Source: Pseudobdellovibrionaceae bacterium
Lineage (GTDB): Bacteria; Bdellovibrionota; Bdellovibrionia; Bdellovibrionales; Bdellovibrionaceae
Length of the DNA stretch: 38,458 nucleotides
Assembly: GCA_039810425.1 (NCBI GenBank)
Contig: JBDHWW010000028.1
Location: 1 to 38,458 of the forward strand
Direction: 5' to 3'
In this document: positions 18,001-38,458 of the stretch, piece after piece
How positions within the stretch are numbered: the stretch's first letter is position 1
How the letters are laid out: each line of letters opens with the position of its first letter
Program-made: the position numbers

Positions 18001-21000
18001 CAGCAACCTCGGGCCAGGTTTTCACTTTGGCTGCCAAATTCAATTTAAAATCAGCTAACGGCTGCCCGAGCGAAAGCTTAAAGAAGGCTTCAATCTTTGC
18101 GATCTCATCGAGGATCTCTTGTTTTTTAAAAACATAGTCTGATTTCGCGAGATCGAAAACCTCGACCGTCACCTCTTGTTCCGGCGAAAGTTTTGGCCGC
18201 TGCTGATACTGGCGCACGAGTTTTGCAAAGACCGCAATCGATTCATCAACCATTCCCGCCTCTTCGTTTAACTGACGCAGCCGAGTCAAATACAAGATCA
18301 CTTGCTTACGGACCTCGGCACGAATCTTCGTAAGCTCCGCTTCGGCTTTTTTCACTTCGGATTCGGCCAGGGCCTTTCTGGCCGAGCGCCCGCCGCCGAC
18401 TTCAATCGGAAATGCCAAGCTCAGGTCGAATTCCGACTGGTTCTGCCCCGAGTTTTTACCGGCGACATACTCTGATGATAATTCGGGATTTAAGAGCTGC
18501 GAAGACTGTCCAACGGTGGCCCTCTTTGCATTTAAATAAGACTCCGCCTTTAAAACTTCGGGCGATCGGCTTTCTGCACATAAAACCAATTGATTTGCAT
18601 TGTTAACGGCATGGCAAAGCTCTTCCGCTCCCGCGACCACGGGAGCCAAAAACATAGCTATCGCCATTGCCGCTTTTTCCAAAAACGACATAAAAACCTC
18701 TGTAAATTGCGATTGGGAATGGGGCTTCGATGGGTGCTAAGAGCTCTTTGGCGGCTGATAGGGCACATCCAAGAACCGACCATGCAGTACCTTAAACTCT
18801 AACAAGTAATTCACTTTATGGGACCGCGCGAAGGAAAGGACAGGCACGGCTGGAATCACTAAACTTGCACAGTGGCCAAAATGGCAGATGCTATGCGAGC
18901 AGTCGCCAATGGGAATCCGGCTCTCATTCACACTTTGGTTGAATTGATATTCGGAGGTAAGGACCCCGCCCCCACTATGACCACATATCGCAAGAGAAGA
19001 CATCACGAGCGTGCCGAAGAGCAAGCTAATGGAAAACCACGTGAGTATTAAAAACGATCTGCATTTCGTCACTTTCGGCAACATACCAAGCTTCATAGAG
19101 CGCATCAACAGTTTAGATTGATACGACTGAAATGAACCCACAACAAACAAATAGGCCCCCGACAAACCAACGGGGGAAAACCAGAACCTCTTCTTCCAAC
19201 GACCGATTGTCGAGGCTCTGTGCACAATAAAATCGCAATTGCACCGATCAATTTAAAATAAAAACATTTTGAAAGTTATAAAGAAGATGACAAGAGGTCG
19301 AAATAGTGTTTTTCTGACGCTTCATTTCTAAATGCTCGAGTGGCGAAATTGGTAGACGCACAGGACTTAAAACTTTTTTCGGGTATTGATTAAGTAGCGG
19401 ATATGACTAATAAAACTGGACGAATGGTAGACCAAAAATCCCTCAAAAAGGTAGACCAATCTACCGATAAGATCGTAGATATGGCGACCTATCGTGAAGC
19501 AAAGATGCTTTATGAAATCGCCCAGCGTATAAACCCCACTCATACGAGAGAGGAAATCTACGAAGCGGTAGAGTTTTTTAAAGCGAATGAAACGAGAGCC
19601 AAAAGTTCCAGAAAATGCAGAGGTGTTTTTCACACTCATTAAGCCCACTCCTAACAAGGAAGGGCCGAATGCTCGCCGCTCGTTTTCGTTCATCATGGAC
19701 ATCCGCTTCGCCGATGGCCGACGCGATCAACCTCGCTACAAATTTCCTGATGGCGACGACCGACTCAAGGTCATAAATAAAGCCTACAAAATTGCCGACG
19801 ATAAAAACGAAGCCTTCGAGAAATGCCTCAAGCTCGCTTTGGATCTGCAAAAGAAGCTCTACATTGAGCACGGCCTTGAGAAAAAAACAGTCTTCAATCA
19901 AGAAAACTACGGCGTGCTCGACGAGTTTTTCGATTGGAAATATAGCGCGAAGAAAACGAAAGATAAAACCGCCGCGTACAATGATTTTCGCCGCGCAGTT
20001 GATGCTGTCGGTTCAATTCCGCTGCAAACCGCGACGAAGTCAGAAATCCAAAAAGCGATCTCCACCGCCGAAAATAATCAGCAGCGGAGAATTGCGAGCC
20101 GCTTGAATATGATCCTCAAGTATCTAAAGCGGGATATTGTTTTGGATAAGGACAAGAAAAAACGAGTTTCTGTTCGCTACTTGAACGAAAAAGAGTTCGG
20201 CTCGGTGATGAAACTCATCAAGGACGAAAATCTTCGCTTGGTTTTCGAGATGGCGTTTCATTCCGGCTGTCGTATGGGCGAAATTTTCGCCTTAACCGAA
20301 GCGGATTTTCGTGCAGGAGTGCTTACCGTCGATAAACAGATGCTCCGAACCGAAGAAGCTGTTCGTCGCCGAAGACAAGAGTATCAAGCCAAGGGAAAAA
20401 CTTGGACGAATTGGGTTCCAAAACCCAGCGATCTGATTTGCCCGACAAAAAACGAACAAAGCCGACGGGTTGTCGTTTTCGAGGAGTTCGCTTCTGCCTT
20501 TAAAAAATGGTGCGAGGTGGATGCCGAAACAAAATTTAAACTGCGGCATTCGCGGTTAGCCGAGATGTTGAGGACAGTTTGCGAGCAAAAGTTTCCGCAG
20601 GCTCCGCAAAAGCATTGTGTGGCTCACGATCTGCGCCACTCATTCGCCATTCGCTTGCTGCAATTCGTGAATCTTACCTACGTCAGCCTTCAACTTGGAA
20701 ACCGTATCGAGGTTTGCCAAGAGTTCTACACGGGCTATGAGTTGCACGATGAGAACATTACCGTTCTAAAATCGATGATGCGTAAGCAGGCATAAATCGT
20801 TACGGGCGCCCGTAACGCGTCGATACTTCTTGAAAAGTCAAGAGTGTTCAGTTATGGTTTTTGAAAGTTATAAATGTTGTGCCCTCATGGTGAAATCGGT
20901 AGACACAAAGGACTTCGCAAGTATTTGAAATCATTAGTGATTTTTAAATATAAAAATTGGAGCCTCGCTTGGGAAACCTCACGAGTGGACGCAGGGATAA

Positions 21001-36000: not shown

Positions 36001-38458
36001 AATACTCTCGCGCAGTTCAGTTTCTTTTCGCTGAAACGGGGCACTCATTTTTAGTTCGTGGATTTTTTCTTCAAGTTCCGCGTCGTTGGATAAAATCCGA
36101 AGATCCGAAACAAAACCGCCATCACGTTCTCGGGCGGCATACCAAAGTTTTCGACCAAGGCTCGTGTTCTTTATCTCTTTTAGACGATCAATCACAGGGC
36201 GAACCTCCAGCCCGTCGGCACCAACCTCAATGGGTGGTGCCGTAATTGTTCCTGTCGTTTTCGACGGCGCAGAAAAAATTGAATCAATGGCCGCGTCCAT
36301 CGCTTGAGCAGGGATGCGAGTCCCTTTGGGCACCGATTTTAATTCACCTAAAATCAGTTGAACGGAGGAAAGTGCCGGACGCTTGATAACATCCGGCGCG
36401 ACAGCCATTTCCTTGTCGAGCGGAACGGGTTTGGGCTCGGGACCACCGAAGGTGTGACAAAGCCATTCGCTCTCGGGAAATGGTTTAGTCATGTGCCCGT
36501 TGCGGAGAAAATCTTCTCGCTCAGAATCAAGGTAGCTACCGAACTTTGAGAGGATGCTTTCATTTCCAGACGCGTATTCTAATTCACTTAAGCGTTGCAG
36601 CGGCAGAGGAGAACGGAGAATAGACCTGAAATCATCCTCTCTCCATTGCAGCACGTTCAGCCGTTCGGTTTGGATGGCTCCATCTTTATCGGAAAAAATC
36701 TCAATCACATCATCGGGATAAGTTGATTCCAAAGCCTCAAGTAGGTTCGGACGAAACCATTGCAGCAGTTCCGCGCCGTCGCAAACGCGGTCGGATTCCG
36801 ATTCCCATATCGGTTCCAGCGGAATCGTAGCGATGAGGACTTGCTCAACCCAATCCGCATCCATTTCGTAATGTTCAGCTAATTCCTTCGCCCAGGCGTG
36901 AAGCACAATCGCTTCCGCATCCGTAGGCTTACGGTCGCCGTAAAGCCATCTCTTTTTTCCCATTCCATTCAAGTCTAACGGACTTTCTTAAATCGGGCAA
37001 AGACCTCTAACCACTGGGGTTTTTCGTCCAGTTCATTGCAGCATCGGTGCAGCACGAGCCGCACCATCAAGCTTCATATTCTAACCCCATAACAGCCGCC
37101 GGACTCCGGCGGTCCCGCCCAAACCGTGAACCCAAAACCAAACCTCCGCTATCGGCGTTTTTCGCCGCAGCGCCCCCTTTTTGCCCAATTCAAAAATGGT
37201 AGACGCACGGGACTTTAAGATGAACGACGAAAGAGATCGTTCTAATTTGAGCCTTACTAGGGAAACTTAGTAAGTGGATTTGGGGATACCGGTGAAACCT
37301 TTCAACTGGCAACACCGTGGGAACATCAGACCGCAAGGCAGGATGGACGCCGTAGAGACTAGATACCCAAACACCTAAGACGAAAGTTATGGTGAAGATA
37401 TAGTCCAGACCACGAACGCTGATAAAGCGGCGATGAAAATCGAAGTGGTAAGAAAATCCTGGGCTTCCTTTACAGGGGCGTGCCGGTTCAATTCCGGCCT
37501 CGAGCACCAATTCCAACAGTACTCGAACCCACACGGGTTGAGCTGTTGAGACAGAAAAGCTGACTTTCGAGTCAGCTTTTTTTATGCCCAAAATCTGCCG
37601 CCACTGTGGCGGCGGTTGGGGTTCCTTCGGTTCCGGTGGCTTTCAAAGGTTCTTTTACCGGCGCAGACAAGTGGCTCTTGGTCAGGATTACGCGCAAAAA
37701 AAGCCGGAAACTTTCGTCGCCAGCTTTATCAGTAAAATCTTAAAGAGCCATCAACCAAGACTGAAGTGGTATGGTAGCTCTAATTCTCCTCTAAAAAGTT
37801 GGTATTATTGCAATTGCTGCAAGATAACACTAATATTGGTTGCAAGTTTGTTTGTGTCATCAACGATGACAGTTTGCTTTCCTTCGCTTAAACTATTCAA
37901 ACCTTTTATGTCAGTGGCCAGTTGTTGTGCTTGGTCGTGGTCTTTGATATTCTTGTAGTTTACAAATGCAACTAGCCCTGCAACAGCTACTACTGGCACT
38001 GCCGCTCCGCCAGTACCGATAATTACACCGGCCATCGCAATGAAATTATAAGTCACCCATAAACCCGCATTCGTCTGTGTGCGACGAGCGTCATCGTTAG
38101 CAATTCTCTGAATATCTTCGATTCTATAGCTCTCACGATTACCTAGAGCGAGTTCGGCGATTTGATTTGTAAAATTCCATCAGTTATCCACAGATTTCCG
38201 ATATTTTCAGTTGAGGCGTTGTGGATAACTGGTTCGGTCGTCAGTTACCGCGCCCAATGCGCCAGCCATCATGCCATCTGAAGTTGTTGATCGTTCAATA
38301 TTCTCAAGGCCTTTGTCAGATTGAAGCCCAAAAACGAGCGATGGCCAGACATCTCCATTGCCAGTGTGGATTTCACATTGGGTTGCCCTCTAAGTCACTA
38401 TGGTCGAAGCACGCACTAATCCATTGAACAACCAGCGGAGCTGTCCTTACTCGACGAA

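Follow-up and report, generated by a model that had tools for sequence, protein, structure and literature searches.

To our knowledge, the small group I introns of tRNA genes lack a homing endonuclease and are yet scattered over unrelated bacteria, and the way in which they move is an open question. The locus described here raises this question in a concrete form. The window, i.e. the whole stretch of DNA that was analysed (38,458 nt, contig JBDHWW010000028.1 of a Pseudobdellovibrionaceae bacterium), contains an integrase island of 17.8 kb (19369-37215), by which the native tRNA-Leu(UAA) gene is split at the anticodon and not rebuilt. Our reading, to which we assign as one joint claim a probability of about 0.82, is that integration does not restore its target, that the loss is compensated by an intron-bearing tRNA gene carried on the element, and that the intron is transported by the element. 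A tyrosine integrase would catalyse recombination between a short core in attP and the anticodon loop of the tRNA-Leu(UAA) gene, leaving the latter as two halves; UUA codons would still be read by the complete tRNA-Leu(UAA) of the island, provided that this is expressed and its intron spliced; and the ORF-less intron would travel as cargo of the spare gene. The features are collected in Table 1.

Table 1. Features of the island and of the tRNA-Leu(UAA) gene that it interrupts (window coordinates).
Feature	Position	Strand	Basis or remarks
Native leader of host tRNA-Leu(UAA) gene	19285..19333	+	Homology to congener G005
5' stub of broken tRNA-Leu(UAA)	19334..19372	+	Exon 19334-19368 plus AAAA; attL junction
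Left copy of 19-bp direct repeat	19350..19368	+	Two genomic copies at ≤1 mismatch
Candidate arm-type integrase sites	19426..19459	+	Pair of 10-bp direct repeats; putative, from sequence
Tyrosine integrase	19587..20795	+	PF00589, phrog_1, alignment
Sigma-70-like promoter match	20830..20858	+	Ahead of spare gene; 9/12 consensus
Complete replacement tRNA-Leu(UAA)	20881..21238	+	Exons 20881-20915 and 21188-21238
ORF-less group I intron, 272 nt	20916..21187	+	After U34, class Leu.3Ug
TolC-, MacA- and MacB-like efflux genes (cargo)	21209..25487	+	
HTH regulators and two weak replication-initiator-like ORFs	26974..30327	.	
DNA methyltransferase	32521..33831	-	PF01555; PADLOC MTase_II
Two family-less ORFs, 271 and 712 aa	33828..36972	-	
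Right arm of element	36847..37215	+	Ends in second repeat copy 37197-37215; attR junction
ORF-less group I intron of broken gene, 237 nt	37216..37452	+	RF00028, 32.6 bits
Orphan 3' exon of broken gene	37453..37509	+	Pairs with stub
Native 3' flank	37510..37559	+	Homology to congener G001

An earlier note on this DNA had described a 5' stub, a direct repeat, and an intron with a 3' half at the far end, and all of these are present. The 5' exon of a tRNA-Leu gene runs into AAAA and then into non-tRNA DNA; its 19-mer is found again, with one mismatch, at the distal junction, and has no further copy at ≤1 mismatch in the 3.54-Mb assembly (chance expectation 0.0015 copies); and the far strand at 37499-37505 pairs 7/7 with the acceptor strand of the stub, as had been claimed. 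When the stub was joined to the far 3' exon, ARAGORN called a tRNA-Leu(taa), and the far end by itself gave no call. Neither junction contains a functional tRNA, and stub and distal half remain apart, in agreement with the claim that the gene is not restored. The statement that the island had integrated into the 5' exon holds in that the island splits the gene, but needs refinement, as the crossover is placed at the CTT of the anticodon loop, at the exon-intron border, and presumably fell within the last 6 bp of the 19-bp repeat.

Both flanks are native. The stretch 19285-19372 shows 91% identity with G005, over the leader and 5' exon of its native, intron-less gene, and 37453-37559 shows 81% identity to the native locus of G001; in relatives, native genes without an intron have an exon that matches the orphan 3' exon. 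On the element side, the attL junction sequence is the same in two sister elements (L150 and L226), the pair of 10-bp repeats is retained in L150, and the right arm shares 94% identity along 372 nt with the corresponding arm of an element in G061, where an intron-less 3' half comes next. An assembly chimera at the far intron junction is hardly credible. The assembly was binned from a metagenome and includes some foreign contigs, but in the probable source run two unitigs, which are not independent data, cover 18600-21193 and 21165-37545 with zero differences, so that both island junctions fall within unitigs and a single one spans the whole distal part; moreover, stub, intron and exon match one and the same gene, in G203, and native sequence is found on either side. 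No empty site and no circle joint was detected in that run, in contig-level data from which rare forms are lost; joints seen in three other runs were traced to tRNAs of other organisms.

The integrase reported previously matches PF00589 (E 3e-6) and also phrog_1 (E 2e-26), and its alignment contains the R, K, HxxR and Y motifs, presumably in their usual roles. The spare gene was called by ARAGORN with introns, and again after in-silico splicing, as expected from the earlier claim; with introns disallowed, the program called zero genes in the window. Standard annotation misses such genes, and therefore their hosts appear to be without an essential tRNA. Three sigma-70-like sites occur in the region vs 1.9 in shuffles, hence the promoter-like sequence upstream of the spare gene is a weak match. 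Both introns score, as had been noted, below the RF00028 gathering score of 50 (24.4 bits, E 0.029, for the spare; E 1e-4 for the far intron); Williams 2020 (bioRxiv 10.1101/2020.01.27.920355) worked at 18-20 bits because the RF00028 model had no bacterial seeds. The spare intron shows the marks of class Leu.3Ug, with insertion after U34, a U at -1 opposite G in P1, and a terminal G. In a covariation test on five related sequences, with the structure drawn by hand from one of them, 96.6% of the cells in core helices P3, P4, P6, P7 and P8 were paired, and 11/47 core pairs showed a two-sided change, a level reached by 0/500 shuffles. The longest ATG ORF in the 272-nt intron has 18 codons, and neither intron carries an ORF.

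The spare is the only credible intact Leu(UAA) copy in a 149-contig bin, which could miss a tRNA gene. An intron-less tRNA-Leu(UAA) on contig C121 was treated as contamination, because this is a small contig (3.2 kb) of 70% G+C, vs 49% for the genome, and one of 34 such contigs. The TTA codon is present in 1471/1556 long ORFs. If the only UUA-reading tRNA needs splicing, translation in this host would depend on an element-borne ribozyme.

Scans with domain profiles and PHROGs recognised no relaxase, conjugation or virion genes on the island, and no structural phage genes were found among its ORFs of ≥80 aa against PHROGs. The ORFs of 271 and 712 aa gave zero matches in Pfam, PHROGs, NCBIfam and PADLOC, and the longer one had no match in Atlas either. 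The efflux genes are missing at the corresponding place in both sister elements; the stretch 27926-31190 shows 79% identity with L150.

The module of stub, integrase and spare gene recurs with 82% identity in two other hosts, where it is combined with different stubs and different cargo. These two sister elements, together with the anatomy described above, back the view of the earlier note that integration is non-restoring and the tRNA is replaced. A scan of GTDB genomes, among which related ones are not independent data, gave at least 80 intron loci of one intron subfamily. The claim of a shared layout was borne out in at least 34 of the 80 loci listed, in which a host stub lies 145-290 nt upstream, and so was its caveat, since 46 of the 80 have no near stub (within 400 nt). 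Genes of trb type lie downstream in 21 of the 80 listed loci, 20 of which also have a near stub. For the UAA stub loci (28 among those listed), 20 genomes yielded an orphan 3' half and one yielded an intact gene with no intron; the acceptor stems of stub and orphan pair 7/7 in all 18 of the 20 that could be scored, and in nine genomes both lie on one contig, 41-70 kb apart.

In line with the idea that such islands offer introns a ride, identical introns occur in spare genes on conjugative elements of Rhodanobacteraceae, Comamonadaceae and Alcaligenaceae. For the family of elements as a whole, the sister elements and these identical introns in distant hosts support, by sequence comparison, the view that the intron is cargo of the spare gene. 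Within the host family, the anticodon-type intron core is present in 14/182 genomes (12/81 in the earlier count), and a stub search blind to introns gave 10 hits in the same 182 genomes, eight of them evaluable, seven with an intron-bearing spare. In one related element the spare gene is intron-less, its D-arm and anticodon stem having diverged strongly, so an intron is not required; in others it is occupied by a group I intron of a separate lineage in the D-loop. Both insertion sites lie in the stretch mimicked by the attP arms. Among the listed stub-linked spares, nine of 34 have an intron that starts with AAA and thereby keeps 6/7 loop bases. A metagenome scan gave 27 loci, with a Leu stub in two of the 17 examined; no viral contig contained the D-loop intron pattern, none of eight viral contigs carrying the anticodon intron had an AAA-type stub, and no phage record covered the spare gene of the window. 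In a search for decayed stubs ahead of stub-less introns, G014 gave a match at the expected distance that reached only the shuffle maximum, and is therefore weak, and the G009 match was below it.

The second intron, in the broken gene itself, bears on the past of the locus. It shares 91% identity (216/237) with the intron that interrupts the spare gene in the G203 element, a gene whose 5' exon is identical to the stub of the window, and only about 68% with the other intron of this cell. Since a sister element integrated into an intron-less gene, the far intron is a second one, older or separately acquired. Probably, and in this tentative order, an earlier element left its intron in the native gene, and that gene was struck a second time. 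We regard such a history of two rounds as the likeliest one for this locus, with some confidence. In the first round, an element of G203 type would have delivered an intron-bearing tRNA-Leu and then lost its body, probably when the duplicated tRNA halves recombined, so that the intron stayed in the native gene; in the second, the present element would have entered at the CTT just before the resident intron, where the match to the core is limited to its left part. No clear decay of the far intron was seen: one P4 pair is broken only there, yet in the G203 intron a P2 pair is broken.

Alternatively, the present element may have entered an intron-less gene, and an element of G203 type may then have entered its attR, which mimics the whole target, two deletions between short duplicated tRNA sequences leaving the intron behind; no integrase would then ever have used an intron-bearing target. 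This order needs about as many steps, places both integrations at perfect cores, and agrees with the intron-less attR of G061, which carries 19-22 nt of 5'-exon mimic and a whole 3' half. It is nonetheless unlikely, because it requires a deletion across a mere 19 nt of homology, and because the acceptor shared by host gene and G203 spare would be a coincidence: this type was found in seven tRNA hits among 182 genomes, and the acceptor stem differs from the stub in all six congeners examined. It should be noted that these hits include native intron-less genes (G023, G158 and G162), so that an acceptor stem specific to the elements was ruled out and the acceptor type is no proof of element origin.

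Why spare genes contain introns so often is less certain. Selection may favour the intron because it interrupts the sequence read by the integrase, so that the spare gene is neither a target nor a partner for attL and attR. The proportion of 7/8 evaluable spares with an intron, as compared with 14/182 genomes with the core, argues for this, as do the separate D-loop lineage, with both positions inside the attP-arm mimic, and the strong divergence of the sole intron-less spare. Against it, the enrichment could also stem from descent within lineages of elements, the anticodon core stays whole when the intron lies in the D-loop, the AAA-starting introns preserve most of the loop, and the window itself suggests that an intron-bearing gene is still targeted. 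Such shielding is plausible, but neither necessary nor absolute, because relatives use a D-loop intron or none, and as an account of why introns are there we give it a little less than an even chance. The view that the captured host tRNA genes merely happened to bear introns, and that base changes protect the spare, comes close to even: an intron-less spare exists, exon 1 of the window spare differs from the host stub at 8/35 positions, and the replacement tRNAs of phages are described, in the available text of PMC10865867, with no mention of introns. It has to contend with the rarity of introns in native genes of the family and their frequency in spares, in several lineages and at two insertion sites.

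Spread of the introns by their own means, through homing in trans or reverse splicing, with the elements as bystanders and transfer mainly from host to element, appears improbable. Whole groups (Achromobacter, Acidobacteriota) have stub-less intron genes that form intron clades of their own, and transfer from host to element is possible. However, neither intron of this cell has an ORF, their identity of about 68% means that one was not copied from the other, and the introns identical across families are accompanied by near-identical exons and by trb neighbours, the stubs being host-specific. The closest relative of the intron in the broken gene lies on another island of this kind, which suggests that such islands ferry introns from one bacterium to another and deposit them in host genes. 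A wider proposal is put forward only tentatively, and we think it rather doubtful: elements with replacement tRNAs would be a main vehicle on which ORF-less introns pass between bacterial lineages and become established in native tRNA-Leu genes, in a cycle of invasion, collapse and re-invasion; the intron would be selected to hide the spare, having been acquired independently at the anticodon loop and the D-loop; and the window would display the full cycle together with the limit of the shield. Elements obliged to carry a spare tRNA would provide a concrete vehicle for such introns.

Classical tRNA-targeting islands and prophages, such as Haemophilus phage HP1, share with this island a tyrosine integrase and the anticodon loop of tRNA-Leu as target. 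There, attP supplies the 3' half and the gene is restored; in the present case, attP imitates a portion of the 5' side, and the element brings a complete gene separately. The island appears to work like tRNA-dependent lysogeny, although in the strict sense this requires a temperate phage with virion genes, of which none were recognised on the island. The principle of compensation has been published for actinobacteriophages (Fionnbharth, cluster L, Gaia; Guerrero-Bustamante and Hatfull 2024, PMC10865867), which, as far as the available text goes, likewise have a tyrosine integrase, a short anticodon-loop core, a gene left unrebuilt and a carried tRNA of the same isotype; at secondary sites of Fionnbharth, CTT alone is conserved. 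In contrast, the present elements are a non-phage island of Bdellovibrionota and ICEs of Proteobacteria, the replacement tRNA is split by an intron (a word that appears once in the available text of that paper, inside a reference title), the broken gene also has an intron, and dependence on the carried tRNA is here a prediction.

The introns of the window correspond to the Leu.3Ug introns of Williams 2020, which are small, ORF-less and inserted after base 34 with U at -1 and a terminal G, and the C36 gene in the same genome belongs to the Leu.3Cg type. The available text of that work does not link either type to islands or replacement genes, and it tests eight anticodon-loop positions only, so that the D-loop intron of the related elements falls outside its scope. 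No literature joining replacement tRNAs of islands with introns was found, in a search whose coverage excluded most subscription journals.

The one proteobacterial element annotated in full (1/1, in G075) has Pfam families that match the backbone of the Tn4371 family in the same order, i.e. integrase, RadC, ParB, RepA, TraF, relaxase, LysR TraR, TraG and trb genes, gene names that we in part presume. The window island differs from this family, since no trb/traG transfer genes, relaxase or repA/par backbone were recognised on it. A profile HMM of the window-family integrase did not detect the proteobacterial integrases, and the window integrase had no BLAST match to the type found in Tn4371-family ICEs, for which more than 70% homology to intTn4371 is the criterion (PMC2789088). 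For ICEKKS102Tn4677 and ICEbphKF708, of the Tn4371 family, the main target is reported to be tRNA-Leu, and the available parts of the sources mention no replacement tRNA or intron (PMC11448139, PMC9960961, PMC6563109). Reverse-complemented, their 9-bp att repeat GATTTTAAG gives CTTAAAATC, the core of the proteobacterial elements. Integration dependent on a carried tRNA would extend beyond actinobacteriophages to islands and ICEs in Gram-negative bacteria, perhaps among them a laboratory ICE that has the same att core.

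The genome that holds contig C28 (3.54 Mb, 149 contigs) carries an island within a tRNA-Leu(UAA) gene, and the observation of an earlier note on this DNA is real. As stated there, a left-over 5' exon (the stub) breaks off into unrelated DNA, an integrase gene follows, a second, complete tRNA-Leu(UAA) (the spare) with an intron of its own lies beside it, and the end of the 5' exon recurs at the far side of the island (see table). The claim that both introns fall below the RF00028 gathering score was likewise confirmed. The 19-base repeat has only two copies in the genome (chance expectation 0.0015). 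Joined to the far 3' exon, the stub gives a sequence that folds as tRNA-Leu(taa), and the far end without the stub does not. In the probable source run, two unitigs span both junctions with zero differences. Judged by its named relatives, the host belongs to Bdellovibrionota. The G+C content is 46.5% in the island, 51.3% and 45.7% in its left and right flanks, and 49.0% in the genome. The cargo comprises efflux genes, HTH regulators, a methyltransferase, weak replication-initiator matches and ORFs without a family; no virion, relaxase or conjugation genes were recognised on the island, which is best called an integrative island. Our main reading, to which we assign a probability of roughly 0.8, is that integration does not restore the target gene, that an intron-bearing tRNA gene on the element compensates for the loss, and that introns are transported by such elements.

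Features of the island and of related loci (positions on contig C28 unless another contig or locus is named)
Feature	Position	Remarks
tRNA-Leu 5' exon (stub)	19334-19368	then AAAA and non-tRNA DNA
Integrase ORF	19587-20795	PF00589, E 3e-6; phrog_1, E 2e-26
Complete tRNA-Leu(UAA) (spare)	20881-21238	272-nt intron
Repeat of the 5' exon's final 19 bases	37197-37215	one mismatch; then 237-nt intron and 3' exon
712-aa ORF, island's right end	34834-36972 (-)	without family or Atlas match
Palindromic 16-18-mer, three copies, island only	20800-20817, 31569-31586, 34553-34570	candidate regulator site; also retained behind the integrase in metagenome locus L150
91-nt pair, intergenic island DNA	27471-27561, 31352-31442	80% identical
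16-nt motif ahead of stub and spare	19267-19282, 20859-20874	absent at the spare in sister elements; possibly local duplication or chance
13-nt motif behind stub and spare	19370-19382, 21238-21250	absent at the spare in sister elements; possibly local duplication or chance
2308-aa Ig-repeat surface protein, then MotA/MotB-like genes	2839-13821	outside the island
Inversion break relative to congener G005	19135-19285; C101:4344	in a short inverted repeat directly upstream of the tRNA leader
tRNA-Leu(CAA) with 269-nt group I intron	C36:4617-4972 (-)	C at 5' splice site; class Leu.3Cg
D-loop-split tRNA-Leu(CAA)	L326:1503-1801 (G057), L327 (G141), L304 (G023), L328 (G017)	group I intron after base 20

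Comparison with congeners identifies the broken gene as the host's native copy: the leader of the stub shares 91% identity with the leader of the native, intron-less gene in G005, and the far exon with its flank is 81% identical to the corresponding stretch of G001. An intact intron-less gene is present in five of six congeners, and the congener G002 has a stub with an intron-bearing spare as well as short contigs that hold copies without an intron. Compared with G005, the tRNA locus stands inverted between a guaB-like neighbour (on C101) and heavy-metal efflux genes. The assembly has a single further Leu(UAA) gene, which is intron-less and lies on contig C121 (70% G+C); this and 33 other small contigs have 61-74% G+C in a 49% genome and are probable bin contamination. 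Because TTA is present in 1471 of the 1556 ORFs of at least 300 codons, the spare is probably essential to the host.

The spare gene, in turn, is part of the element. In L150, a matching module of stub, integrase and spare (82% identical DNA across 1.9 kb; integrases 87% identical) has another host stub in front and comes with other cargo. The element of genome G061 is a 4.4-kb version, whose right arm is 94% identical to that of the window's island over 372 nt; after this arm comes a 3' half that lacks an intron and pairs with G061's own stub. Directly after the spare in L150 (from 1985 onward) there is a different gene with a seemingly TIR-like N-terminus.

In both introns of the window a U precedes the 5' splice site, and a GAG guide and a terminal G are present. 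They contain no ATG ORF of more than 19 codons and belong to the already catalogued class Leu.3Ug (Williams 2020); identity between the two is only about 68%. When ten helices drawn from the far intron were scored on five related introns, 96.6% of cells paired and 11 of 47 pairs had changed on both sides; not one of 500 shuffles scored as high, and slid partners paired at 27-42%. This covariation supports the fold, short of proof because the aligned introns are few and related. In a tree, the five group into a single clade (support 100/100).

The far intron is identical at 216 of 237 positions, without gaps, to that in the spare of an element in G203, a genome of another genus of the same family. 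That spare, whose 5' exon equals the window's stub, follows a host stub at a distance of about 150 nt; the integrases of the two elements are 27% identical. The simplest reading, which we consider fairly probable, is that the intron of an earlier element would have settled in the native tRNA-Leu(UAA) gene, and that the present element would then have entered by recombination at the CTT that precedes this intron. Such an order fits the junctions: attL shows the element's AAAA and attR the first bases of the intron, so that the two have no more than the left part of the loop in common. Secondary sites of phage Fionnbharth likewise retain only CTT (PMC10865867). A second element entering attR and then collapsing would, alternatively, give an identical end state. 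Native genes without an intron have the acceptor type of the stub in G023, G158 and G162, so transfer could have run in either direction. Possible intermediates are locus L044, in which the acceptor of the 5' exon is a closer match to the orphan 3' half than to its own 3' exon; the intron-bearing Leu(CAA) gene of this genome (contig C36), with a native-looking leader, an integrase gene downstream, and no stub or orphan half found in the assembly; and several stub-less intron genes whose 3' flanks look native by eye.

Scanning GTDB genomes with the intron 3'-end pattern gave at least 119 stretches, 80 of them with full flanks. Among the matches listed, 34 of these 80 loci (28 UAA, 6 CAA) have a 5' stub no more than 400 nt away, at distances of 145-290 nt, three further loci have one 1.5-16 kb away, and the remaining 43 have none. 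Within the same listed matches, trb-type conjugation genes lie downstream at 21 of the 80 loci, 20 of which have a stub nearby; for the 28 UAA stub loci, 20 genomes yielded an orphan 3' half and 8 did not, and one has an intact intron-less gene. Also among the matches listed, 20 of 21 candidate regions checked were orphan halves, acceptor stems of orphan and stub form 7/7 pairs in all 18 cases scorable by script, one conserved integrase, judged by its N-terminus, lies about 176 nt from the orphan half in 17, and nine elements are complete on a single contig (41-70 kb). A Tn4371-type backbone was seen in the one proteobacterial element that was fully annotated. In the listed Proteobacteria, spare exons are near-identical between genera and stubs are variable; identical introns are shared by Dokdonella, a Comamonadaceae bin and Eoetvoesiella, and by Hydrogenophaga and Variovorax.

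Nine loci (L041, L046, L075, L088, L091, L092, L094, L100 and L064; Achromobacter) have an intron-bearing tRNA-Leu(UAA) with exons close to the ICE spare, and no stub or intron-less copy was found in these genomes; such genes may be spares that have settled or the genes from which spares arose. Loci L039, L090 and L184 have introns of about 670-900 nt at the same site, with room for an ORF, and are possible endonuclease-bearing members. In a plasmid collection, 1402 records match part of the spare-gene region L063:9500-10330; the best 20 span both exon and intron, with identities of about 68-70%, are mostly unannotated, and many are enterobacterial.

An intron-blind stub search of 182 family genomes gave 10 hits, two of which were set aside (one a duplicate gene, one without a spare before the contig end). 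Six of the eight evaluable spares have an anticodon intron and one a D-loop intron; the last, at L302 (G146:C120), is a strongly diverged, intron-less tRNA-Leu(CAA) next to a stub and an integrase of the window's family, so an intron is not required. The anticodon intron core occurs in 14 of the 182 genomes, at 18 places, and the D-loop intron in 4 of 384 order-level genomes. D-loop introns form a lineage apart from the anticodon introns, and their insertion site, unlike those surveyed by Williams 2020, is outside the anticodon loop. The complete ones, in two genomes, measure 212 and 238 nt (RF00028, 43.8 and 40.5 bits), and their in-silico removal gives tRNA-Leu(caa); a host stub lies some 190 nt ahead of three of the genes, and one gene is followed by an integrase of the window's family.

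The recurrence of introns in spares suggests selection, and the intron might shield the spare from integration, an explanation we hold only tentatively. However, the D-loop intron does not interrupt the anticodon core, among the matches listed 9 of the 34 introns linked to a stub start with AAA, one element manages without an intron, and the window itself suggests that an intron-bearing gene can still be targeted. That the intron is a neutral passenger has, in our view, close to an even chance. The bold reading, a cycle in which elements spread introns that are selected as a shield, appears rather doubtful.

In the literature searched, no paper was found that joins tRNA-dependent integration with introns. 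The island would work in the same way as tRNA-dependent lysogeny (PMC10865867), but it is not a phage. For ICEKKS102Tn4677, tRNA-Leu is reported as the main target, and the published att repeat is the reverse complement of the core CTTAAAATC shared by the proteobacterial elements.
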